The translations under genes and the position numbers were made by a program. A stretch of 64,000 bases of DNA from Candidatus Portnoybacteria bacterium (lineage in GTDB: Bacteria > Patescibacteriota > Minisyncoccia > Portnoybacterales > GWB1-42-6): contig JACQXN010000022.1 of NCBI GenBank assembly GCA_016208745.1, forward strand, positions 19,212 through 83,211, in the 5' to 3' direction. Below the pieces are notes generated by a model. That model saw only the letters and a program-made list of their open reading frames with translations, searched no databases and was not told where the DNA came from. Shown here in pieces: positions 4,399-56,792 of the stretch (its first letter is position 1; every line of letters starts with the position of its first letter).

Positions 4399-5730
4399 TT
4401 AACGCATTCCTCTAAGTTCTTCTTTTACAATCTCGCTCTCCTGCCAAGGAATCTTTTTCCCATTTTCCACACACATCCAAACCTCTCCCCCTTTGCCAGT
4501 TAGAATAACCGCATCTCCGGCTTTCGCTAAACTCAATGCTTTTTTTATCGCTTCACGACGATCTAAAATTTCATAGACATTGGAAATTGGTAATTGGGTA
4601 TTGGAAATTCCAGATTTTATCTCCGATAAAATCTGGGTTGGGTCTTCATCATAAGGATCTTCATTGGTAATAATTACATAATCCGCGTATTCTCCAGCCA
4701 AGCGGCCTAAAGCCGCTCTTTTTGATTTATCGCGGCCGCCGCCCTGTGCGCCAAGCAAAGCAATAATTTTTCGCGGATTAAAAATTTTAAGCGCTTTGTA
4801 AGCCGATTCAAGAGAAGCCGGCTCGTGAGCATAATCAACGATAACTGTAAATGGCTGACCTTCATTAATTACTTCCAAACGGCCCGGCGCTGGTTTGGCA
4901 TTTTTTAGAGCCTCTTTTATTTTATCGACTCCGATTCCTTGCGAAATTGCTACGCAAATTGCCGCCGCAGCGTTATACATATTAACCTCGCCGATAAGAG
5001 GCGTAATAAAATTTTCACTGTTAAAATCGAATTCGGTTCTATCCGAGGCCAATTTAATGTTTGCAATTTGAAGCTTTCCAAATCCTCCCCAACCCTCCCT
5101 AAAGGGAGGGAGCGATTCCCCTCCTTTAGGAGGGGCTAGGGGAGATTTTAAAAAATACCCCATTTTTTTCGCCATTGGAATTTTCAAAAAATATTCTGTG
5201 CTCTCATCATCCAAATTATAAACTCCAATTCCGTTTTTCTTTTTCGCCACGGCTTCAAATAATTTTAATTTTGCTGCCCGATAATTTTCAAAACTGCCGT
5301 GGCGCTCAATGTGCTCGGGCGATAAATTAGTAAAAACCGCGACTGAATAATTAATGCCTTTGTGCCGATGCTGCAGAATTCCCTCTGAAGAAGTTTCAAT
5401 TACCGCGTATTTGCATCCTTCGCTAACCATTTGCCGCAATAATTTCTGCAATTTGAATCGGCCAAGCATAGTCTGCTTATAATCATTTATCCACTCCTTA
5501 TCCCTAATTCTAAAATTTACCGTTGTCGCCATGCCGGTTTTAAACCCCGCGCCCTGCAAAATCTGAGCGATTAAATTACAAGTCGTTGTTTTCCCTTTTG
5601 TCCCGGTCACGCCAATTACAATCAATTTCCGTGACGGAAAACCATACACAAGCGCGCCCAAATAAGCGAGCAACCAATGGTACCAACTAAAAATAAAATT
5701 CGGGATAAGTTTTTTTAGAATATTTTTCAT
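4399..5730 (-). CDS. Mur ligase family protein (MurE-like UDP-MurNAc-peptide ligase) with N-terminal membrane anchor
   Basis: GVTGTKGKTTT P-loop and DYAHEP motif of Mur ligases. N-terminus is a TM helix rather than a MurE N-domain. Carries an in-frame palindromic element at 5079-5149. Confidence 0.75.
   Translation of the reverse strand: MKNILKKLIPNFIFSWYHWLLAYLGALVYGFPSRKLIVIGVTGTKGKTTTCNLIAQILQGAGFKTGMATTVNFRIRDKEWINDYKQTMLGRFKLQKLLRQMVSEGCKYAVIETSSEGILQHRHKGINYSVAVFTNLSPEHIERHGSFENYRAAKLKLFEAVAKKKNGIGVYNLDDESTEYFLKIPMAKKMGYFLKSPLAPPKGGESLPPFREGWGGFGKLQIANIKLASDRTEFDFNSENFITPLIGEVNMYNAAAAICVAISQGIGVDKIKEALKNAKPAPGRLEVINEGQPFTVIVDYAHEPASLESAYKALKIFNPRKIIALLGAQGGGRDKSKRAALGRLAGEYADYVIITNEDPYDEDPTQILSEIKSGISNTQLPISNVYEILDRREAIKKALSLAKAGDAVILTGKGGEVWMCVENGKKIPWQESEIVKEELRGMR
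5079..5149. repeat. GC-rich nested-hairpin element (family A copy) inserted in-frame within Mur ligase CDS
   Basis: AAATCCTCCCC..CCCTCCCTAAAGGGAGGG..CCCCTCCTTTAGGAGGGG..GGGGAGATTTT. Translated in-frame on the minus strand as SPLAPPKGGESLPPFREGWGGF. Confidence 0.8.
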
Positions 5731-6105: not shown

Positions 6106-7194
6106 TCATCTTAAAATATTTCTTGTCGCTTTGTATATCTTGTACCACCATCTATTAAAAATGTAATTGTGCGTGCCGCAAAACGCGACTTCATACCCCC
6201 CAAAACCCTTCTTAAATCGGCTCACACCCGGCCATTTTTGTTCGTCATAACCCCAAAAATCATAATATTTACAGCCCTGATTTTTGACAAATTTTATCTG
6301 CTCCCATTGTAAAAGATGCGGCGCCATCAAACTGCGAGACTCGTTATCGGATCCGCCATGAATATAAATTGCTGTACTATTAAAAATATTTACTAAATTC
6401 GCGGCGATTGTTTTTCCTTGATATTGGGCTAAAAATAATAAATTCTCAAAATTTAACTCACCCTCGCTCTCTCTTAAAATAAGAGAGGGAATTACGTCTG
6501 TATTCTCTCCCCCTCTTAAATTAAGAGGGGGGTGGGGGGAGTTATTTCCAATTTGCAACTGCTTTCTATAATATTCTTTCTCAAAAATCTTTATCCCCTG
6601 TCTTTTTGCGGTCTGATTAAGCAAACTCCAAAATTCTTCAAAGTCTTTTTCGTTATACTCTGTCCTCCTTATTGTTACGCCTTTGCGCTGGGCAAGATTA
6701 ATATTATAACGTGTTTTCTCATGCATAGCCGCCAACAATTCTTCTTCACTTCTATCCAAATTTAAAATCAGAGTCCTGCTTGGCTGGATATCTTTTGTTT
6801 TTGAAAAACCCAACCCCCTTAAATCCTCCCTACTTATTTCAAAAGTCGGCTCGATTCTTAAAAATATCGCATTTTCTTGTTTAGCTAGATGTTTAACTTC
6901 CCGTAAAAAGCCCTGCATTCGCAGGAGATTCATCTCCGCCCGATGGCGGATCAGAATGGCATCTCGTGTTAATTCTGAAATTATTAGAGGGCCTCGCGGG
7001 CAATACAGATAGCTTTTCCCCAGCGGTAAATTATATTTAATTATTAAACCTGCCCAATCTTTGCCTTTCAGGAAAAAAGTTTTTCTCCCTAATGATTTCT
7101 GAAACTCCGCCCATTCTAAAGACTGCAAAAAACCGCCGCCTTGCTTCAAAACAAACTCATTCCAATCCTCTTTTCCGCCTTCATAAATAGCCAT
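6106..7194 (-). CDS. FemAB-family peptidoglycan interpeptide-bridge aminoacyltransferase
   Basis: FLQSLEWAEF N-terminal and LLQWEQIKFVKNQGCKYYDFWG C-terminal motifs typical of FemABX. Likely ATG at 7194 (track start 7239 is TTG). Contains an in-frame repeat at 6457-6541. Confidence 0.75.
   Translation of the reverse strand: MAIYEGGKEDWNEFVLKQGGGFLQSLEWAEFQKSLGRKTFFLKGKDWAGLIIKYNLPLGKSYLYCPRGPLIISELTRDAILIRHRAEMNLLRMQGFLREVKHLAKQENAIFLRIEPTFEISREDLRGLGFSKTKDIQPSRTLILNLDRSEEELLAAMHEKTRYNINLAQRKGVTIRRTEYNEKDFEEFWSLLNQTAKRQGIKIFEKEYYRKQLQIGNNSPHPPLNLRGGENTDVIPSLILRESEGELNFENLLFLAQYQGKTIAANLVNIFNSTAIYIHGGSDNESRSLMAPHLLQWEQIKFVKNQGCKYYDFWGYDEQKWPGVSRFKKGFGGYEVAFCGTHNYIFNRWWYKIYKATRNILR
6457..6541. 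repeat. GC-rich hairpin element (family B copy) inserted in-frame in FemAB CDS
   Basis: TCTCTCTTAAAATAAGAGAG and CCCCCTCTTAAATTAAGAGGGGGG hairpins. Encodes SPHPPLNLRGGENTDVIPSLILRESEGE inside the ORF. Confidence 0.75.
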
Positions 7195-7231
7195 ATTCTT
7201 AATGGCATTGTAGCGTAAAAAAATCCGAAAG

Positions 7232-7262
7232 ACAAACAAAAAAGGCAGTTATGACTGCCTTT
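7232..7262 (-). terminator. Rho-independent terminator for gene 7261-7671
   Basis: Hairpin AAGGCAGTtatgACTGCCTT followed on the minus strand by a T-run. Confidence 0.5.
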
Positions 7263-8277: not shown

Positions 8278-8288
8278 AATCTATTTTT

Positions 8289-8377
8289 TCCTCCTCCCCT
8301 CAGATGAGGGGAGGATTGAGGTGGGGTGCTGAAAAACACCACCACCCCCTGCCCCCTCCTCAACTGAGGAGGGGAAG
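8289..8377. repeat. GC-rich hairpin element (family B copy), intergenic
   Basis: CCTCCTCCCCTCAGATGAGGGGAGG..GAGGTGGGGTG..CCCTCCTCAACTGAGGAGGGG. Near-identical to 45667-45799 except for an internal ~50 nt indel. Confidence 0.7.
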
Positions 8378-8429
8378 AAAAAATTAAATAGTTTCTGCTT
8401 TCAGTATACCTCCCGCCCGCGCGAAATTC

Positions 8430-8745: not shown

Positions 8746-8842
8746 ATTACGTCTCCTCTGTGAGTTTTTAATGCCTGAAAATAATAAATAAAACGAACTA
8801 TCTAGCGAATTGAATTAATAATTGTATACCATAAACCAATTT

Positions 8843-10921
8843 ATGTCAACCTTCAAGCTCCGCGCACCATTTCGCCCAACAGGTGACCAGCCAGGCGCAA
8901 TAAATGCACTAGTTAAAAATTTAAAGACTGGCATTAAGCATCAGACGCTTTTGGGTGTGACAGGAAGCGGCAAAACTTTTACTATGGCCAATGTGATTGA
9001 GAAAAATCAAAAACCAACATTGGTTATTTCGCATAATAAAACTTTGGCGGCCCAGCTTTATCAGGAATTTAAAGAGTTTTTTCCGGAAAACGCCGTGCAT
9101 TTTTTCGTCTCCTATTATGACTACTACCAACCCGAAGCCTATATCCCCCAAACCGACACCTATATTGATAAAGACGTAAAAATCAACGATGAAATTGACC
9201 GCCTGCGCCACGCCGCCACGCAGGCGCTTTTAACCAGAAATGACACGATTGTTGTGGCTTCAGTTTCTTGCATTTATAATATCGGCTCGCCAGAAGAATA
9301 TCAGAATTTGAGTTTAGAGTTTAAGAAAGGCCAATTTTTGAGCCGCCAGAAATTTTTAAGGCATTTAATATCTCTGCAATACCAGCGATCGGATGTTGAT
9401 TTCAAAAGAGGCACATTTAAAGTCCGGGGCGATTTAATTGAGGTCTGGTCAGCCACTGGCGAACAAATATTAAAATTTGATTTTTTTGGCAATCAGATAG
9501 AAAAAATATCAGAAATCAATTTGCCCAATAATATTTTAAAAGCAGACAAGGAAAAAGAAGTTAAACAGGCAAGAGTTTTTCCGGCTAAATACTGGGTCGC
9601 GCCAGAGCAGAAATTGGGCTTAGCAATAAAAAATATTAAATTGGAGCTTGAAAACCAGCTGGAAAAATTAAAAAGACAGAATAAAATTCTTGACGCCGAA
9701 CGGCTTAAGCGGCGCACCAACTTTGACCTTGAAATAATCAAAGAAACCGGCTATTGTCACGGCGTTGAAAATTATTCACGGCATTTGGAATTTCGCAAAC
9801 CCGGCGAGCCGCCTTTCACCTTATTGGACTATTTTCCAAAAGACTATTTATTGATTATTGACGAATCGCACATGACTGTTCCCCAGCTTAACGGAATGTA
9901 TTTTGGCGACCGCTCGCGCAAAGAAACTTTAATTGAGTATGGCTTCCGCTTGCCTTCGGCGCTTGATAACCGACCGCTTAAATTTAATGAGTTCGAGAAA
10001 AAGGTTGATCAAGTTGTCTATACTTCGGCAACGCCCAGTAAGTACGAAATCGAGAAATCAAAGTCTGTCTGCACGAAAAAAAATCCTCCCCATCCCTCCT
10101 CCGTATCAAGTACGGGGCAAGCTCTAAAGGGAGGGAGTGATTCCCCTCCTTTAGGAGGGGCAAGGGGAGATTTTTGCATCATCCAGCAGCTCATCCGCCC
10201 CACTGGCCTGCTTGATCCGGCAATAGAAATCCGTTCAACTAAAAATCAAATTCCACATTTAATCAAGCAAATCAAAGAAACGGTCGAAAGTGGTGCCAGG
10301 GTTTTAGTAACAACAATTACCAAACGCCTCTCCGAAGACTTATCGGAATATTTGCAAGAGCAAGGAATAAAAGCCCAATATCTGCATTCTGAAATTAAAA
10401 CATTGGAACGACCGGAAATTTTGAAAGATTTAAGACTTGGCAAAATCGACGTTTTGGTTGGCATTAATCTTTTAAGAGAGGGGCTGGATTTACCAGAAGT
10501 TGGGCTGGTGGCAATTTTGGATGCTGACAAGGAAGGCTTTTTGCGCAATGACACAACGCTTATCCAAACAATGGGCCGCGCTTCTCGCCATCCGCAAGGC
10601 CGCGTTATTATGTATGCTGACAAGATTACCCAATCAATGAAACGCGCAATTTCTGAAACCAATCGCCGGCGCAAAATTCAGGAAAGCTATAATAAAAAAC
10701 ATAAAATCACGCCCCAGCCAATTAAAAAAGGCATCCGGCCAAGCATTGTAGAAATTACAAAAATGCCAAAAGGAGCGCTAAAAACTGAGAAAGAATATCT
10801 GGAAGAATACATTAAGGAGCTTGAGTTTAAAATGGAACTGGCTAATCGGAATTTGCAATTTGACGAAGCAATGAGACTGCAAGAACAAATTAATAAATTA
10901 AAAAGGGCGACGAAAAAATAA
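8843..10921 (+). CDS. uvrB: Excinuclease ABC subunit B (UvrB) with ~33 aa in-frame palindromic-element insertion
   Basis: GVTGSGKTF Walker A, helicase motifs, C-terminal UVR domain. Segment CTKKNPPHPSSVSSTGQALKGGSDSPPLGGARGDFC interrupts the conserved ELEKS...RPTGLLDP region. The track start at 8822 is TTG; the ATG at 8843 is more likely. Confidence 0.9.
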   Translation: MSTFKLRAPFRPTGDQPGAINALVKNLKTGIKHQTLLGVTGSGKTFTMANVIEKNQKPTLVISHNKTLAAQLYQEFKEFFPENAVHFFVSYYDYYQPEAYIPQTDTYIDKDVKINDEIDRLRHAATQALLTRNDTIVVASVSCIYNIGSPEEYQNLSLEFKKGQFLSRQKFLRHLISLQYQRSDVDFKRGTFKVRGDLIEVWSATGEQILKFDFFGNQIEKISEINLPNNILKADKEKEVKQARVFPAKYWVAPEQKLGLAIKNIKLELENQLEKLKRQNKILDAERLKRRTNFDLEIIKETGYCHGVENYSRHLEFRKPGEPPFTLLDYFPKDYLLIIDESHMTVPQLNGMYFGDRSRKETLIEYGFRLPSALDNRPLKFNEFEKKVDQVVYTSATPSKYEIEKSKSVCTKKNPPHPSSVSSTGQALKGGSDSPPLGGARGDFCIIQQLIRPTGLLDPAIEIRSTKNQIPHLIKQIKETVESGARVLVTTITKRLSEDLSEYLQEQGIKAQYLHSEIKTLERPEILKDLRLGKIDVLVGINLLREGLDLPEVGLVAILDADKEGFLRNDTTLIQTMGRASRHPQGRVIMYADKITQSMKRAISETNRRRKIQESYNKKHKITPQPIKKGIRPSIVEITKMPKGALKTEKEYLEEYIKELEFKMELANRNLQFDEAMRLQEQINKLKRATKK
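10081..10172. repeat. GC-rich nested-hairpin element (family A copy) in-frame in uvrB
   Basis: ~85 percent identical over 92 nt to 42961-43054, with the same outer AAATCCTCCCC/GGGGAGATTTT and two inner hairpins. Confidence 0.85.
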
Positions 10922-45026: not shown

Positions 45027-45128
45027 AGAGAAATTTTAAAAATTAAAAGTATGCGTTAGCGTGTGAAAAAATAAATTAATGTTATGACGTCCGACATCGA
45101 TAGAATTCTGGTTTTTAAAATTATGTAT

Positions 45129-45167
45129 AAAATCCCCCTTAATCCCCCTTTAAAAAGGGGGAGATAG
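45129..45167. repeat. GC-rich hairpin element (family B short copy), intergenic
   Basis: aaaatcccccttaatCCCCCTTTAAAAAGGGGGagat; 39 nt near-identical to 56052-56090. Confidence 0.7.
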
Positions 45168-45639: not shown

Positions 45640-45666
45640 TTATTGTGGGCTACGAAACACTCTTTT

Positions 45667-45799
45667 CCTCCTCCCCTCAGATGAGGGGAGGATTGAGGTG
45701 GGGTGATGATTATTCGCGTGGACGCATTTGCATGAATTCGCGCCATTTAAATGCAATCAACACCACCCCCTACCCCTCCTCATCTGAGGAGGGGAGGAG
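45667..45799. repeat. GC-rich hairpin element (family B copy with ~50 nt internal palindromic insert), intergenic
   Basis: Same termini as 8289-8377 (CCTCCTCCCCTCAGATGAGGGGAGG ... CATCTGAGGAGGGGAGGAG). Confidence 0.7.
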
Positions 45800-45811
45800 T
45801 TAGAAAATACT

Positions 45812-47638
45812 TTACATCAGCGGGTTTTTTTGTTGAATAGTCTCTTGCTCGGCAAATTCCTGTTTGGCTTTTTCAATTTCTAAAAGTTGCGAAGGGTCAG
45901 AGGTAATAATCTGGTCTTCGGTGTAGGAGGCGACAACTTTTATCGCCACATGCTTTAGCCCGGCAAAAAATATTCCTTCGCCAACATTGCATTCCAAAAG
46001 CAGGTATTTTTCTTGCTCGGTTAAACTAAAGGTCTGTTTGATTATATCAATGGTGGTCGGCGACTGCTTCATTAAAAGCTGTATAGAGGAATTACTGACG
46101 ATTGGTTTGCCGTATTCGGAGCTCATAAAATCAGCAATATCTTGTGTAATAGTTGTTAGGGCGGTGAAATATTTGCGGCAACGCTTGGCAATATGCGTCA
46201 TAAACGAAGCCGCATCTACGTATTTCATCATTACCCAAGCCTCGTCAACCACTAAAAGTCTTTTTTTAAGCCTTTCTGTTCGCATTAGATTCCAAATGTA
46301 GTGTAGGACAATATACATTGCCATTGGCCGCAATTCCTCTTCCATATCGCGAATGCTAAAAGTTACCAATTTATTTTTGGCTGTAATATTGGTTGGCTGG
46401 TTAAAAAAGCCAGTATAAGAGCCAGTAACGTATTTTTCCAAACGCAGGGCAATGGGTTTGCCGCCCTCCATATTCTCTAAAACGGTTTTTAAATCGCCCA
46501 AAAGCGGCGGCGTCATTTTGGAAAAATCAACATTAGGTGTGATATCGCGGGAAGCATAAGTTTCATTAAGCGCTTTATCCAAAATCGCGTCTTCTTGCGG
46601 AGTTAGGCCTCCAAGCATTATTCGAAGCAAACCAACAAGATGTATAATATTGCTTCGTAAAATATCAGCTGGCTGGTCGTCTTTTTGTAAAACAGGTAAA
46701 TCAAACGGGTTAATGTTGTTGGCGGAATTAAGCGAGATTTTAATATATGAGCCGCCGACAGTCTCGGTTAAATATTGGTATTCGTTTTCCGGGTCAATAA
46801 CGATAACATCTGTGCCAAGCATCAGCGATCTTAGAATTTCCAGTTTAACAGCATAGCTTTTGCCAGCGCCAGATTTAGCAAAAATCACGGAGTTATAATT
46901 TTCCATGCTAAATCTGTCAAAGAGCACGAGGCTGTTATTGTGCCGGTTAATGCCATAAAGAATGCCTTTGTTATCCGACAAATCAGAAGAAACAAAAGGA
47001 AAGGTGCTTGATATTGGCGAGGTATTCATTGGAACGTTAATAAAAAGCTCGTCTTTGGCCAGAGGCAGAATAGCGTTAAAACCTGCTTCTTGTTGAAATG
47101 AGGCGGGTTTGGCATAGACCAGTTTTGCCTCCAGCAGTCCCCTTATTTCATTCTCTGTTTCATCAAGCTCCTTGGCTGAGTCGCCAAAAATAGCCAGATA
47201 AAGCCCAAAGCGGAAAAATCTTTCTGTCCCCTGTTGAAGGACGTCTCTTAAGCCCTCCATATCCTGCAAAGAGGTTTCCAAGATTGGGTCTCTGGCTTTG
47301 CCTTTCTCCTGCTCTATGGAAATTTGCGATTGAACATGCCCCACTCTTTTTCTTAATTGTTTTAAGATTAAACCGGTGTCAGCCGGGTGAATAAACATCG
47401 TAATATTTTTTTCTTTATCAAGCGAAAGAATAGGCGAGAGCCAATTGGTTAAAAGATGCCTTGGGTAGGTAAAAACAAAAAGAACGCGGCAAAATTTATT
47501 GCCAATTTCAAGATGGTTGACGCTAAGCTTAATAGCGGGCGGCGCGATTAATTCAGCCAAGCCAAGCGAGGTTTGGTTTGGTTGGTTTGCGGCCGAAGGT
47601 TCGGGGGATTTTTTTCTTGAGAATAAAGAGAAGGCCAT
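45812..47638 (-). CDS. VirB4/TrbE-family T4SS ATPase, C-terminal two-thirds (separate ORF)
   Basis: Walker A AKSGAGKSY, Walker B LLVVDEAW, WLSP motif, VirB4 C-terminal pattern; 608 aa. Confidence 0.8.
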   Translation of the reverse strand: MAFSLFSRKKSPEPSAANQPNQTSLGLAELIAPPAIKLSVNHLEIGNKFCRVLFVFTYPRHLLTNWLSPILSLDKEKNITMFIHPADTGLILKQLRKRVGHVQSQISIEQEKGKARDPILETSLQDMEGLRDVLQQGTERFFRFGLYLAIFGDSAKELDETENEIRGLLEAKLVYAKPASFQQEAGFNAILPLAKDELFINVPMNTSPISSTFPFVSSDLSDNKGILYGINRHNNSLVLFDRFSMENYNSVIFAKSGAGKSYAVKLEILRSLMLGTDVIVIDPENEYQYLTETVGGSYIKISLNSANNINPFDLPVLQKDDQPADILRSNIIHLVGLLRIMLGGLTPQEDAILDKALNETYASRDITPNVDFSKMTPPLLGDLKTVLENMEGGKPIALRLEKYVTGSYTGFFNQPTNITAKNKLVTFSIRDMEEELRPMAMYIVLHYIWNLMRTERLKKRLLVVDEAWVMMKYVDAASFMTHIAKRCRKYFTALTTITQDIADFMSSEYGKPIVSNSSIQLLMKQSPTTIDIIKQTFSLTEQEKYLLLECNVGEGIFFAGLKHVAIKVVASYTEDQIITSDPSQLLEIEKAKQEFAEQETIQQKNPLM

Positions 47639-47687
47639 TAGAATAAATTAAAAAGTAAAAAAAGAATTATAAGCGTTATCCCCCTCT

Positions 47688-47773
47688 TTATAAAAGAGGG
47701 ACTAAGGGGGATTTATATTGAAGACTATTTTTAAAATCCACCCCAGCCCTCCTTTTTTAAAGGAGAGAGCAGG
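47688..47773. repeat. GC-rich hairpin element (family B copy) separating the two VirB4 ORFs
   Basis: Reverse-complement relative of the element at 56006-56090. Lies between the stop at 47777 and the ATG at 47638, which are in the same frame; the intervening 138 nt contains stops. Confidence 0.75.
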
Positions 47774-47776
47774 CCA

Positions 47777-48409
47777 TTATACATTAATAACCGGCCTTTC
47801 TCTGGCGCCGGGGTTATACATTTTATAAAGAAGCTCAACTAATTCATCGTCATTTAGGGCAACTGTTTTTAAACTGCAGGCAGAGAGTCCGGAAGATATG
47901 TATTCCATTCTTTGCCAAAGGCCGGCGCGCATCTGTTGGAAAGTTGGGAGCTTTGTTTCCCCGTTTTTTTTGCCAAACGATTTTTTCATCTTTTCAATAA
48001 GACCGGTGGCTTGTTTTTCAATGCTTTGGGTAAAGGGCACGATGACATAAAAATAAGTGCTCATAATATTAACCATTTGCGATAAATTTTTCACAAAATC
48101 AATATATTCGCTCGTTTGGATTTTTAAAAGCTCGTTTTCCTGTTCAACTCTTTTTTGTTCCAAGGTTTTTAAATAATCAGAAACATCAAATTTTCTGGTT
48201 GAGACCAGAATTTGGATTGGAAAATCAAGCGAGTTTAAAAATTCCTGATAACGATAAGTGATGGCTTCCTGCTCTTCGCTGGATTTTAAAGAGAAATTAA
48301 GAGAGCCGATCATCAAAACCCCCTTTAAAGAGCCGTCTTTCATTAAGATAGCGCCTTCTTTGATTTCAGTGACTGGGATTTTTTTTTTTTTTCTTGCGCC
48401 CTGATTCAT
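47777..48409 (-). CDS. VirB4-family ATPase N-terminal domain (separate ORF); contains A14 tract at codons 6-10
   Basis: GAILMKDGSLKGVLMIGSLNFSLKSSEEQEAI...PIQILVSTRKFDVSDYLK matches the N-domain of Gram-positive VirB4 (Tn916 Orf16/PrgJ-like). T14 on the plus strand at 48379-48392. Confidence 0.7.
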   Translation of the reverse strand: MNQGARKKKKIPVTEIKEGAILMKDGSLKGVLMIGSLNFSLKSSEEQEAITYRYQEFLNSLDFPIQILVSTRKFDVSDYLKTLEQKRVEQENELLKIQTSEYIDFVKNLSQMVNIMSTYFYVIVPFTQSIEKQATGLIEKMKKSFGKKNGETKLPTFQQMRAGLWQRMEYISSGLSACSLKTVALNDDELVELLYKMYNPGARERPVINV

Positions 48410-48432
48410 AAAGTTAATTTAAATATCAAATT

Positions 48433-48497
48433 GTCATTCCTGCGAAAGCAGGGATCCAGGTTTTATGAGTCTGGATTCCCGCTTTCGCGGGAATGAC
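48433..48497. repeat. Family C hairpin repeat (GTCATTCC-TGCGAAAGCA-GGGATCC / GGATTCCC-GCTTTCGC-GGGAATGAC)
   Basis: Internal hairpins CCTGCgaaaGCAGG and TCCCGCtttcGCGGGA with outer GTCATTCC/GGAATGAC inverted repeat. Relatives at 56371-56462 and 56878-56900. Confidence 0.65.
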
Positions 48498-48553
48498 ATA
48501 GAATGTTCTAGGGATTTTGTTGATGTCAGACGTCAGCAGATTAATTGCCTAAT

Positions 48554-48859
48554 TTAAATTCGATTTTTCTTCCAAATAAACATCCTTCCTTTAATTATAT
48601 AATTAATAGAAGCGCCAAGAATGGTAATAAACGGCCGGCCGTTGATTTTAAGAAATGCCAAAGCCAGCGCAAAAAGAGTCAAGGGAATAGAAGCTAGCAT
48701 AAAGAGCCAAAACTCGGCATATTGATACAAAAAGAAAAGGATTGCGCCGGTTCCGCCAAGATACCCAAACTGCTTTAAAGTCAGCGGCCCGACTATTTTG
48801 TCCTCTACTTCTAAAAATTGGGGGACATTGAATTGCATATAAAAAAGCTCAAAGCTCAA
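48554..48859 (-). CDS. Small two-TM protein (VirB3/PrgI-like candidate)
   Basis: 101 aa, two hydrophobic helices, positioned immediately upstream of VirB4 as is typical for VirB3. Confidence 0.4.
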   Translation of the reverse strand: MSFELFYMQFNVPQFLEVEDKIVGPLTLKQFGYLGGTGAILFFLYQYAEFWLFMLASIPLTLFALALAFLKINGRPFITILGASINYIIKGRMFIWKKNRI

Positions 48860-50058: not shown

Positions 50059-52413
50059 TTATACATTTCTTAAATAAGCATCTTGAGTTGCCATAGTGTG
50101 CCCTTGAGCCGCGGGGTGTTGTCTTATATATTCAACAATATCGTGAGCTAGCTGGCCATTTTCATTTCCAAGTTTTTCAACAACACCACGTAAAAGATTG
50201 GGCGGGATATTCATAGCCACAGTCGGTGAGAAGTTTTGCAGGCGTTTCAGGCCTTCTGCGCCAGCCCTCCGGGCCCAGTCTCTTTGTTGGGTAGGGGACA
50301 TTCTTTGTACATCGCCAGTTTGGGACGCATAAGCAAAGTTGACCTCATTTCCCACAGGGTTGATACCTCGGGCATTCATCGCCGCTTGATTCGTTGGGTT
50401 TGTTATTCTCGTTAGCGTAGCAATGAGTTCTCTTTGGTGTTGGGTTGATTTATTCCTTAAGTCTTCAACTTGTTTGGCGCTTCCGTTTCTAACTATAGCA
50501 TCTACAACATGATCATCCAAAAGGGAAAGATGCGAAATACTATTAAGATTACCTTCACGGATCGTGGTCTGGACAGCTTGTTCGCGCTGGGCAAGATTTG
50601 CGATGGTCTCTGGTCTTGCCTGCTCTAGCTGGGTAGCTTCTTGCCCGTAGCCAAATCGCCTGAGGTTTTCAATGGCTGTCGTGGCTGTCGCATTGTCATA
50701 TTGATTTTTGGCTACGCCTCTCCTTGTATTTTCCAAATCAACGGCAACCGCTCTAGCCCCTCCTGTTCTTCTATCTAGTTTTTCTCTGTCTAAGTCGGCT
50801 TGGCTATATGAGGCAATCCGTCTTGCGTAAGCCTGCATCTCTGGAGTTTCCATTGCCCTTCGTCGTACGTCTTTGGCTGCAGCCTCAACTCTTGCTCCAG
50901 TTTTTGCGAATGGCGTTCTTTCTTTTAAGGTTGTTCCTACTCTTTCTGTGACTGCGGCTCCGGCTCTCCTTGCCTGTGTTTGCGCTTGCCTACCAGTCCA
51001 CGCCACCGGTCTCATTGCTTGTCCTTGCGCCCAGCGTCTGCCTCTCTGACCCATACTGACAACCGCGCTGGCGCCAGTGATGCTCATTTTCTGGGCGACA
51101 ATTAAAGAGCCTAAAAGAAAACCGATTATTATGACAAAGCTAATTGTTGTACCAATGCTAAAACTTCCAATTCCGGGCATTTGTTGTAATTCTGTAAGCC
51201 CTTCCCCTGTATTGCGCATTTGCTTCAAAACAACGCCCTTGGTAATCATAAGAAGCGAGATATAAAGAAAAAAGGTGAAGGCCGGAGCAAATAGAATCCA
51301 TTTCATAAAACTCTCCCACCATTGATTCCAATATTTTTGGGTTACTGGCAGAATAGAAAAAAGCCAAGCTAGTGGAGCTAAAATAAGTAAGAATAATAAG
51401 GATATATAACGGATTATAAAAAGAATAGCCGCGGCAAAAAATACAAAAGCGGCGATTAAAATAAAAATAGAGCCTGCAAAAATTCCGATTAGAATTGTTA
51501 AAAGAGCGTCTACTTCGCCGTCAAGGTTAGGCATATTCACTTCGTCTTTAAATACGCTTGCCATATCTAGGCCATTCATAATATTGTCGGTTATGCTAAC
51601 CGCTCCATTCGATGTCGCCGCGTTAACAAAATATTTGGTTAAAACTTGAGAAAAATCAATTATGACTCCAGCAATTACTAAACTAAAATTAATTAAAAGA
51701 GCGGCGATGATTAATTTTGGCAAGGTGCGTTTTAAGCCGTATGAATCAAGTTTTAAAATCGTGGCAAAAGCAATAATGATTAAAATCAAAGAGAAGAACA
51801 TATTGGCCAAATCTCTAGTGTATCTCCAGCCTTCTTGGACAATGACTGACTTGGTGAAATCCTGCAGTTCCGGTTTCTCGAGCACAAAATTAAATATATA
51901 AGCTGCTAACCGAAGAAGTAGGCCTAAAACCGAGAAAATAAACCACATAACACCGCCTAAAAGTTTAAGGGCCTGTTCATATAACCATCCTCCGCCTCCA
52001 GCATTACCAGCGCTGCTATTTGATACGGATGCTACATTATTTTGGTTGCTGGGCGTATCACAAAAATATCTTTGTTCCGCTACTCCGTGCGCTATTAACA
52101 TTGATTTATAAACGCAGAACCCTTTTTCGCCACTTTCCATACAAGGCGCGCCCACGGTTTTTGCTGTGCAGTTAGTGATATATGCTGAATCCGGCACGTC
52201 GCATTCCAAAACTGGCTCGCCTTCGTCGTCTAAATCACCCGTCATCACGCAGGTTCCGTTCACGCCTCCTAAGGCACATGTATCTCCTGCTTCCAGGCCG
52301 TCACATTCTTGCGCAGACGCATAATTAGCAGTTGAGAAAAAAATAAAACCAGCAACTGCCAAAACAGCAATAATTAAAACAATATTTATTTTTCTGGATT
52401 TATTTTGAGCCAT
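50059..52413 (-). CDS. VirB6/TrbL-like polytopic membrane protein with Cys-rich N-terminal ectodomain and Arg/Ala/Gln-rich C-terminal extension
   Basis: Signal/TM, 10 Cys in the first 120 aa, ~8 TM helices. The C-terminal ~330 aa is hydrophilic and encoded by markedly GC-richer DNA (50059-51060). Confidence 0.55.
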   Translation of the reverse strand: MAQNKSRKINIVLIIAVLAVAGFIFFSTANYASAQECDGLEAGDTCALGGVNGTCVMTGDLDDEGEPVLECDVPDSAYITNCTAKTVGAPCMESGEKGFCVYKSMLIAHGVAEQRYFCDTPSNQNNVASVSNSSAGNAGGGGWLYEQALKLLGGVMWFIFSVLGLLLRLAAYIFNFVLEKPELQDFTKSVIVQEGWRYTRDLANMFFSLILIIIAFATILKLDSYGLKRTLPKLIIAALLINFSLVIAGVIIDFSQVLTKYFVNAATSNGAVSITDNIMNGLDMASVFKDEVNMPNLDGEVDALLTILIGIFAGSIFILIAAFVFFAAAILFIIRYISLLFLLILAPLAWLFSILPVTQKYWNQWWESFMKWILFAPAFTFFLYISLLMITKGVVLKQMRNTGEGLTELQQMPGIGSFSIGTTISFVIIIGFLLGSLIVAQKMSITGASAVVSMGQRGRRWAQGQAMRPVAWTGRQAQTQARRAGAAVTERVGTTLKERTPFAKTGARVEAAAKDVRRRAMETPEMQAYARRIASYSQADLDREKLDRRTGGARAVAVDLENTRRGVAKNQYDNATATTAIENLRRFGYGQEATQLEQARPETIANLAQREQAVQTTIREGNLNSISHLSLLDDHVVDAIVRNGSAKQVEDLRNKSTQHQRELIATLTRITNPTNQAAMNARGINPVGNEVNFAYASQTGDVQRMSPTQQRDWARRAGAEGLKRLQNFSPTVAMNIPPNLLRGVVEKLGNENGQLAHDIVEYIRQHPAAQGHTMATQDAYLRNV

Positions 52414-55796: not shown

Positions 55797-56792
55797 TTAT
55801 TGGTTATTTAAATTTAATTCCTTCGTTATCCTTGTCCAATCTTCAGCTCTCAATGTTTCTGCCCTTTGGCTTGGCGAAATACCAGCTTTTTTTAAGGCCT
55901 CTTCAACTATTTTGCGGTTAATTTTTAACCCTTTTGTTAAGTTACCGGCTAATTGTTTGCGGGGAGCAGAAAAACCGGCGCGGACGACTTTAAAAAAATC
56001 ACTTGCCCCCTCCTTTTTAAAGGAGGGCTGGGGTGGATTTTCTTTTTCTACAAAATCCCCCTTAATCCCCCTTTTATAAAGGGGGAGATGGCTTTTTGGT
56101 ATAATCTTAATTATCGCCGAATCGACTTTTGGTTGCGGCCAGAAACAGCTTTTGGAAACATAATGCAAAATTTTTGGCTGGGCGTAAAATTGCACCGAAA
56201 CCGCCAAGAGACTCATTTCGGGCGGCTCGGCACAAATTCTTTGGGCTACTTCTTTTTGTACCATTAAAATCATTTCGCTTGGCGGATTATTTGATTCCAG
56301 AAACTTTCTAATAACGGGCGAGGTTATATAGTAAGGAAGATTGGCGACGAGTTTGTAATTATATACTTTTGTCATCCCGGGCTTGAACCGGGATCCAGAC
56401 GTCGTTCCTGCGAAAGCAGGGATCTGCTCATTATCCTGGATTCCCGTTTTCACGGGAATGACAAAAAGCGAGGTAATTGGAAATTTCAAGGCATCGCCTT
56501 CTATAATCTCTGCATTTCCATAATCTCTTAGTGTCTCTTTTAAAATTTGAATCATATTTCTCCCTTTTTCAATTGCGATAACCCTTTTTGCTTTTTTGGC
56601 TAATTCTTGTGTTAGCGTGCCAAGGCCCGGTCCAATTTCCAAAATCGTGTCGGCTTTTTTTATTTGTGCGGCTTCAATAATCTTATCTAATATATTTTTG
56701 TCAATTAAAAAATTCTGACCAAGCTGTTTTAGGGGCGTGGTGCCATATTTTGATAGCAGATATTTAATTGTTTGCGCGGATAAAAGGTTCAT
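55797..56792 (-). CDS. rsmA: 16S rRNA (adenine1518/1519-N6)-dimethyltransferase RsmA/KsgA carrying two in-frame repeat-element insertions
   Basis: SAM motif ILEIGPGLGTLT, NLPYYITSP catalytic motif, PQPKVDSAII. At 331 aa it is ~50-60 aa longer than typical KsgA. Confidence 0.8.
   Translation of the reverse strand: MNLLSAQTIKYLLSKYGTTPLKQLGQNFLIDKNILDKIIEAAQIKKADTILEIGPGLGTLTQELAKKAKRVIAIEKGRNMIQILKETLRDYGNAEIIEGDALKFPITSLFVIPVKTGIQDNEQIPAFAGTTSGSRFKPGMTKVYNYKLVANLPYYITSPVIRKFLESNNPPSEMILMVQKEVAQRICAEPPEMSLLAVSVQFYAQPKILHYVSKSCFWPQPKVDSAIIKIIPKSHLPLYKRGIKGDFVEKENPPQPSFKKEGASDFFKVVRAGFSAPRKQLAGNLTKGLKINRKIVEEALKKAGISPSQRAETLRAEDWTRITKELNLNNQ
56006..56090. repeat. GC-rich hairpin element (family B copy) in-frame in rsmA
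   Basis: CCCCTCCTTTTTAAAGGAGGG..ctggggtggatttt..aaaatcccccttaatCCCCCTTTATAAAGGGGGagatgg. Encodes ...KGDFVEKENPPQPSFKKEGA... inside KsgA. Confidence 0.75.
56371..56462. repeat. Family C hairpin repeat in-frame in rsmA
   Basis: GTCATCCCGGGcttgaaCCGGGAT..CCTGCgaaaGCAGG..GGATTCCCGttttcaCGGGAATGAC. Encodes FPITSLFVIPVKTGIQDNEQIPAFAGTTSGSRFKPGMT between DALKF and KLVANLPYY. Confidence 0.75.

Follow-up and report, generated by a model that had tools for sequence, protein, structure and literature searches.

A T4SS locus with two ORFs in one frame

The window (the whole 64,000-nt stretch of Candidatus Portnoybacteria DNA analysed here) carries, on its minus strand, a trsD-like gene of 210 aa (47777..48409; the N ORF) followed by a virB4 ATPase gene of 608 aa (45812..47638; the C ORF). 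Both are surrounded by T4SS neighbours: the gene order runs from a TrbL/VirB6-like gene (50059-52413) through a 337-aa gene and a PrgI/VirB3-like gene (48554-48859) to the trsD-like gene, virB4, and three conserved unknowns encoding 150, 270, and 367 aa. Synteny of the whole locus is kept in relatives. As judged by this gene content and order, the locus is a canonical Patescibacteria T4SS locus.

The N ORF ends in the residues VINV and a TAA stop (47779-47777), and the C ORF begins with an ATG at 47638 and the N terminus MAFSLFSRKK. Between them lies an intergenic spacer of 138 nt (47639..47776, minus strand) that holds an in-frame TAG and an in-frame TAA. From 48409 to 45812 on the minus strand, a single frame of 866 codons can be counted, composed of the 210-aa ORF, 46 codons of spacer, and the 608-aa ORF. 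An earlier note, made by reading the same DNA, described this arrangement as a virB4 gene split by a palindromic element with stop codons, and offered a recent pseudogenising insertion, a genuinely split VirB4, or read-through/recoding as explanations. Its description of the region was accurate: the translation and a pair of 29-nt arms in the spacer (see below) agree with two ORFs in the same frame, separated by 138 nt (46 codons) of palindromic DNA with TAA and TAG stops.

Both ORFs encode complete proteins

The C ORF aligns with positions 178-733 of 752 of the NCBIfam model NF045971 (conju_CD1110; E=4e-108) and scores 362.8 bits, above the cutoff of 325. Pfam P-loop_TraG, DUF87, and CagE_TrbE_VirB are all found in it above their gathering thresholds. 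Its translation holds a Walker A motif (GAGKSY), a Walker B motif (LLVVDEAW), and a WLSP motif, and the Walker A/B columns are invariant across 25 homologues. The start fits the consensus N terminus of its homologues (MxFxLFxKK), and among the matches listed, 120 of 120 homologues are 569-710 aa long. The protein is identical to a database entry of a Candidatus Portnoybacteria MAG. By profile match and Walker motifs, the C ORF is a VirB4-family T4SS ATPase, as was expected from its assignment as the remainder of VirB4 in the earlier note.

The N ORF, in turn, matches the N-terminal parts only of VirB4-type models in our profile search, namely positions 103-253 of 894 in NF045975 (Mbov_0397 VirB4; E=3e-11) and positions 7-143 of 752 in the CD1110 profile. 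It is only remotely similar to the curated TrsD model NF041427 (E=7.3e-5; 22.7 bits, below the cutoff of 200). A Pfam scan with a local copy assigned no family to it; the identical NCBI protein (locus tag HY764_04005, on a 95-kb contig of a Candidatus Portnoybacteria MAG) carries a precomputed PF26593, a family that the gene tables of relatives call 'TraC-like'. The identity of the N ORF is therefore taken from the NCBIfam matches, the precomputed PF26593, and its fused homologues, and the NF045975, CD1110, and TrsD matches confirm the earlier assignment to the N-terminal domain of VirB4. Its length is that of a free-standing protein: 120 of 120 homologues among the matches listed stand alone at 202-255 aa. 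When an N-domain profile was run against 1.84 billion cluster representatives, 148 of the best 150 matches were 161-443 aa long and only 2 of the best 150 were fused proteins. The end of the ORF is also normal, in that it terminates after a conserved YNP motif, where homologues terminate. On the evidence of these alignments, the N ORF encodes a complete protein of ~200 aa that stands alone, is homologous to the very N-terminal part of VirB4, and is encoded separately, directly upstream of virB4.

Rare single-chain TrsD-VirB4 fusions occur in more distant relatives, as exemplified by P0358 (797 aa) and P0373 (898 aa), which share 52% identity with the C ORF. The N ORF was compared with P0358 only, to which it is 39% identical over residues 3-214 of the fused protein. 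The linker is ~15 residues in P0358 and ~110 residues in P0373. A fused state is thus possible in the wider family, and trsD and virB4 therefore encode one functional module that can be written either way.

TrsD next to VirB4 has already been published for Patescibacteria, where TrsD was described as remotely homologous to the N-terminal part of VirB4 (PMC12102498). No other T4SS component is as abundant in Patescibacteria: TrsD has 2,272 homologues, 1,664 of them found in association with VirB4. In Ca. Southlakia epibionticum (Ca. S. epibionticum), TrsD is given as essential (PMC12102498). We compared the window pair with these Patescibacteria TrsD-VirB4 pairs (PMC12102498) and with TrsD/TraD plus TrsE/TraE (VirB4) of the staphylococcal plasmids pGO1/pSK41. 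As in both systems, a VirB4-N homologue of ~200 aa lies immediately upstream of a VirB4 ATPase of ~600 aa, in a monoderm-type locus with PrgI/VirB3 and VirB6 homologues. Unlike the usual pair, which has a spacer of a few bases, the window pair is separated by 138 nt with a repeat. The two ORFs jointly cover positions 7-143 and 178-733 of 752 and include Walker A/B, as do the single-chain VirB4/TraC/CD1110-family ATPases (~750-900 aa); unlike those, the module is encoded as two polypeptides in this locus, as it is in essentially every relative of the Parcubacteria type.

The trsD/virB4 junction in relatives

To compare the junction across species, we fetched 80 loci from different species of Parcubacteria-type Patescibacteria. 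In 77 of them, the scorable loci, the N homologue lies directly upstream of the ATPase gene on the same strand. A stop codon lies between the two genes in 77/77 scorable loci. Their spacer has a median of 8 nt and ranges from -29 to 536 nt (6 overlaps, 48 spacers of 0-30 nt, and 23 of >30 nt), with a TAATG overlap at the junction in L005 and L030. Relative to the upstream stop, the ATPase start is in frame 0 in 14 loci, in frame 1 in 34, and in frame 2 in 29. Because all three relative frames occur among relatives, the shared frame in the window is uninformative; by this count, the two ORFs share a frame by chance.

Among the eight closest relatives, with ATPases 74-80% identical to the C ORF product, every one (8/8) has a stop followed by a separate start at the junction, and the contents of their spacers are unrelated. 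The shortest are an ATGA overlap of 4 nt (spacer -4 nt; L089), 3 nt (L091), and 6 nt (L083: TAGaatcaaATG, protein N terminus MAFSLFSKK). Longer spacers measure 105 nt (L092, an unrelated palindrome of -38.9 kcal/mol), 109 nt (L090), ~129 nt (L082, an AT-rich inverted repeat), 178 nt (L081, different GC hairpins), and 508 nt (L088, which holds a GIY-YIG ORF). This last ORF (L088 822-1112), a 96-aa GIY-YIG domain gene between trsD and a virB4 whose product is 78% identical, may be a homing-endonuclease-like insertion into the spacer. The junction thus tolerates anything from a 4-nt overlap up to an inserted GIY-YIG gene. Hence, tight translational coupling of trsD and virB4 would not be required.

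Relatives that lack any repeat at the junction still have a stop and a start there, and no continuous ORF across the junction was found in the close or moderately distant relatives examined. The view that the element split virB4 does not hold, since the 77 scorable loci and the eight closest relatives are already two genes; the option of a genuinely split VirB4, with N and C parts encoded separately, is the one that the 77 loci bear out. The earlier note had named as a counter-observation that relatives always encode the two domains separately at this position without any repeat. Separate coding was indeed found in 77/77 and 8/8 loci, and a repeat-free junction in most (median spacer, 8 nt) but not all.

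Among the spacers longer than 45 nt at this junction (~30% of relatives), many are strong hairpins, and palindromes unrelated to the window element are present at the same junction in L002, L019, L055, L081, and L092. We considered whether the junction is a hot spot for palindromes and rejected this idea: across the 80 loci, spacers >45 nt make up 30% here versus 26% at other same-strand junctions, and the median spacer is 8 nt at trsD/virB4 versus 11 nt at other same-strand junctions of the same loci. As a separate observation, 23S_rRNA_IVP / bAvd-family four-helix-bundle genes lie amid the T4SS genes of several close relatives, beside prgI and trsD (L082 976-1419 and 1755-2129; L089 1-229; L092 1-326). 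None was found at that position in the window.

A palindromic repeat occupies the spacer

Most of the spacer is a palindromic repeat with a core of ~95 nt (47674..47768), laid out as hairpin, arm, loop, arm', hairpin. The core boundaries were set where four copies, including those on two unrelated metagenome contigs, cease to align. The 29-nt arms (47686-47714 and 47734-47762) are 76% complementary, and perfect sub-hairpins are present at 47682-47700 and 47749-47765. The predicted RNA fold has a free energy of -40.9 kcal/mol, with a z-score of only -2.1 owing to base composition. A search of Rfam at E<=1 matched no family to the element at 47674-47768.

A stretch of 33 nt (47641..47673, minus strand) between the core and the virB4 start forms an A/T-rich virB4 leader that is not common to other element copies and resembles the A/U-rich leaders of other genes in the window. 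We scored a Shine-Dalgarno core as GGAG/GAGG <=25 nt upstream of an ORF, and found it in only 3 of the 54 long ORFs of the window (51/54 without). Gene leaders in the window are A/T-rich, and translation initiation appears to be largely Shine-Dalgarno independent.

An apparent insertion footprint at the junction

The insert is flanked by a 9-nt direct repeat, TAATGGCCT. The left copy (47771..47779, minus strand) includes the trsD stop TAA, and the right copy (47632..47640, minus strand), at a spacing of 139 nt, includes the virB4 start ATG. Flanks shared a word of >=9 nt in 33 of 20,000 shuffles (p ~0.002). Deletion of one 139-nt unit gives ...GTA-TAATGGCC..., that is, a TAATG stop/start overlap as in L005 and L030, and the synthetic empty-site sequence of the junction reads ...GTTATTAATGTATAATGGCCTTCTCTTTATTC... 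No empty-site allele of the exact trsD/virB4 locus was found. The direct repeat suggests insertion into an ancestral TAATG overlap; the simplest account is an event at a translationally coupled junction that produced a 9-nt duplication and spared both genes.

Read as a target-site duplication, this footprint is incomplete, and either the insert is composite or the 9-nt repeat is coincidental. In the alignment of copies, the 33 nt that separate the core from the right TAATGGCCT copy fall outside the shared part, and the candidate 9-nt duplication is found at the trsD/virB4 copy only. We also considered the 33-nt A/T-rich tail as part of the element, together with a 7-nt CGACTTT duplication around a second copy inside rsmA (a unit of ~131 nt). 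This was rejected because the rsmA unit would take in a conserved RsmA segment, PKVDSAIIKIIPK; for the same reason, the likeness of the two tails (TATAAT, TTAATTAT) is compositional.

We conclude with high confidence that the region holds two separate, intact, and co-oriented genes, trsD and virB4, with a ~95-nt repeat in an ordinary intergenic spacer, and that nothing is broken or recoded. The trsD gene encodes the segment that forms the extreme N terminus of single-chain VirB4 proteins, and the trsD/virB4 split is older than the whole clade. The repeat that has landed in the trsD/virB4 spacer belongs to a family of palindromic, non-coding hairpins found across the genome. The ancestral junction was presumably a TAATG stop/start overlap, and the insertion may have duplicated TAATGGCCT, leaving the trsD stop in the left copy and the virB4 start in the right one. 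Translation of virB4 would now start on its own, from a leader that is rich in A/U and lacks a Shine-Dalgarno sequence, as would that of nearly all genes here.

Alternative explanations

The element might not be neutral, a reading that adds to the two-gene architecture rather than competing with it. Here, the insertion would have uncoupled the translation of trsD and virB4, and either the hairpin or a promoter-like TTTATA-17-TATAAT at the 3' edge of the element would tune virB4 expression, as an internal promoter, an RNA stabiliser, or a processing site. The promoter-like site (47694..47666, minus strand, with TATAAT at 47671-47666) matches 10 of 12, scores best among such sites on this strand of the scanned region, and lies ~28 nt upstream of the virB4 ATG. 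The hairpin is predicted to be stable, and five relatives have unrelated palindromes at the same junction. However, 10 promoter-like matches were found in this AT-rich region versus 7.0 expected from its shuffles, and the fold z-score is modest. No intrinsic terminator-like site was found at the element on the coding (minus) strand, and long spacers are no commoner here than at other junctions. Furthermore, the repeats occur in either orientation, both in spacers and inside ORFs where such a role is impossible. A promoter role for TTTATA-17-TATAAT is no more than a possibility; overall, we consider a regulatory effect of the element unlikely.

A mis-join in the MAG that placed the repeat between the two genes is far less probable still. 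Short-read contigs in the Logan assemblies of SRR12113404 and SRR12113398 do end inside the element loop, as expected for a repeat, but in these two independent assemblies the right half of the element runs into the start of the C ORF with a sequence identical at every base. The gene order, moreover, is the conserved one, and the two-gene conclusion is independent of the element.

There is very little to recommend a recent insertion into a continuous virB4 that left a pseudogene or two fragments. The ORFs share a frame, the gap between them is largely a mobile-looking repeat, and fused TrsD-VirB4 proteins exist in distant lineages. Against this, a stop and a separate start are found at this exact position in all scorable loci and all eight close relatives, with or without a repeat, both ORFs are full length compared with their stand-alone homologues, and excision of the 139-nt unit leaves a TAATG overlap and no open frame. 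Programmed read-through or recoding across the element to give one VirB4 polypeptide, which has the shared frame alone in its favor, is just as hard to credit: three stops (TAA, TAG, and TAA) would have to be bypassed, frames (14/34/29) and spacers (from overlap to >500 nt) follow no conserved recoding geometry, no Rfam or recoding-type structure was found at the element, and a conserved ATG and N-terminal motif of its own mark the start of the C ORF.

A family of hairpin repeats within and between genes

The closest paralogous copy of the element lies at 55997-56093 (plus strand; nhmmer E=1.8e-12), inside the rsmA ORF (55797-56792, minus strand; RrnaAD, E=1e-57). Relative to its host gene, it is in the opposite orientation, and it is read through in frame, so that the element in the spacer is, as the earlier note proposed, a reverse-complement relative of the in-frame rsmA copy. 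The Pfam match to RrnaAD extends no further than residue 237 of the rsmA product, exactly where the element begins, and the element is translated as ~30 extra residues (…IIPKSHLPLYKRGIKGDFVEKENPPQPSFKKEGASDFF…). A second odd insert (FVIPVKTGIQDNEQIPAFAGTTSGSRFKPGMTK) is present earlier in the same protein. In addition, there is a partial copy at 45111-45167, and two further copies are found on unrelated metagenome contigs (L086 and L087). The element therefore exists as multiple dispersed copies with shared ends, as is typical of MITE-like repeats. A metagenome-wide scan with the exact core returned only these two other contigs, a number that does not allow a census of the family.

More broadly, the window contains 16 hairpin units of the form poly-pyrimidine/loop/poly-purine, 10 of which are intergenic though ~89% of the window is coding. 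Such units are present in most spacers of the T4SS operon (43024, 45143, 45669-45794, 47682, and 48950); the trsD/virB4 copy is not special among them. Perfect poly-Py/poly-Pu hairpins also lie in frame, without stops, within a Mur ligase ORF (4399-5730, minus strand; hairpins at 5093-5135), a FemAB-family ORF (6106-7239, minus strand; 6509-6531), and the UvrB ORF (8822-10921, plus strand; 10143-10160). This pattern suggests that repeats have commonly inserted in frame in this genome.

The prgI/trsD spacer (48413-48516) holds a different long palindrome (…cattcccgcgaaagcgggaatccag…cctggatccctgctttcgcaggaatg…), the only place hit in the Rfam search, which matches WsnRNA46 (Wolbachia sRNA 46) on both strands with 43 and 39 bits, below the gathering score of 65; the match probably reflects convergence of a palindromic repeat and not true homology to WsnRNA46. 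Two near-identical modules, 8286-8378 and 45663-45798, are 37 kb apart and share 47 nt at 98% identity and a second, 33-nt hairpin at 85%. The latter module is directly downstream of virB4. Together, the two modules make up a further repeat family built along similar general lines.

Intergenic palindromic repeats of bacteria include REP/BIME, ERIC, and Correia/NEMIS-type MITEs, and the Rickettsia palindromic elements (RPEs) are comparable. In general terms, the element resembles REP/BIME, ERIC, and Correia/NEMIS MITEs in being ~80-100 nt long, non-coding, strongly self-complementary, and mostly intergenic, with many diverged copies. Like RPEs, it has some copies that lie within housekeeping genes and are translated in frame. 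Unlike the named REP/ERIC/MITE/RPE classes, it shows no similarity to an Rfam family at this site, and it is not known to have a transposase, nor a terminal inverted repeat flanked by a consistent target-site duplication. Our literature search found no report on palindromic elements in CPR. We tentatively propose, while regarding it as rather doubtful, that these hairpin repeats are an undescribed CPR counterpart of RPEs, mobile in operon spacers and in frame in essential genes (rsmA, Mur ligase, FemAB, and UvrB). In that case, the copy between trsD and virB4 would keep the 9-nt duplication footprint of a TAATG overlap, and its insertion would have turned a coupled pair into two independently initiated cistrons.

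The main value of this analysis is a correction: the two-gene form is the norm and already published, and a trsD plus virB4 pair met in the annotation or scanning of Patescibacteria genomes should not be mistaken for a virB4 that is broken or recoded. The apparent insertion footprint at the TAATG overlap is a mildly new point. The repeat family, some of whose copies are translated within housekeeping proteins, is of greater interest and may represent selfish DNA in extremely reduced genomes.
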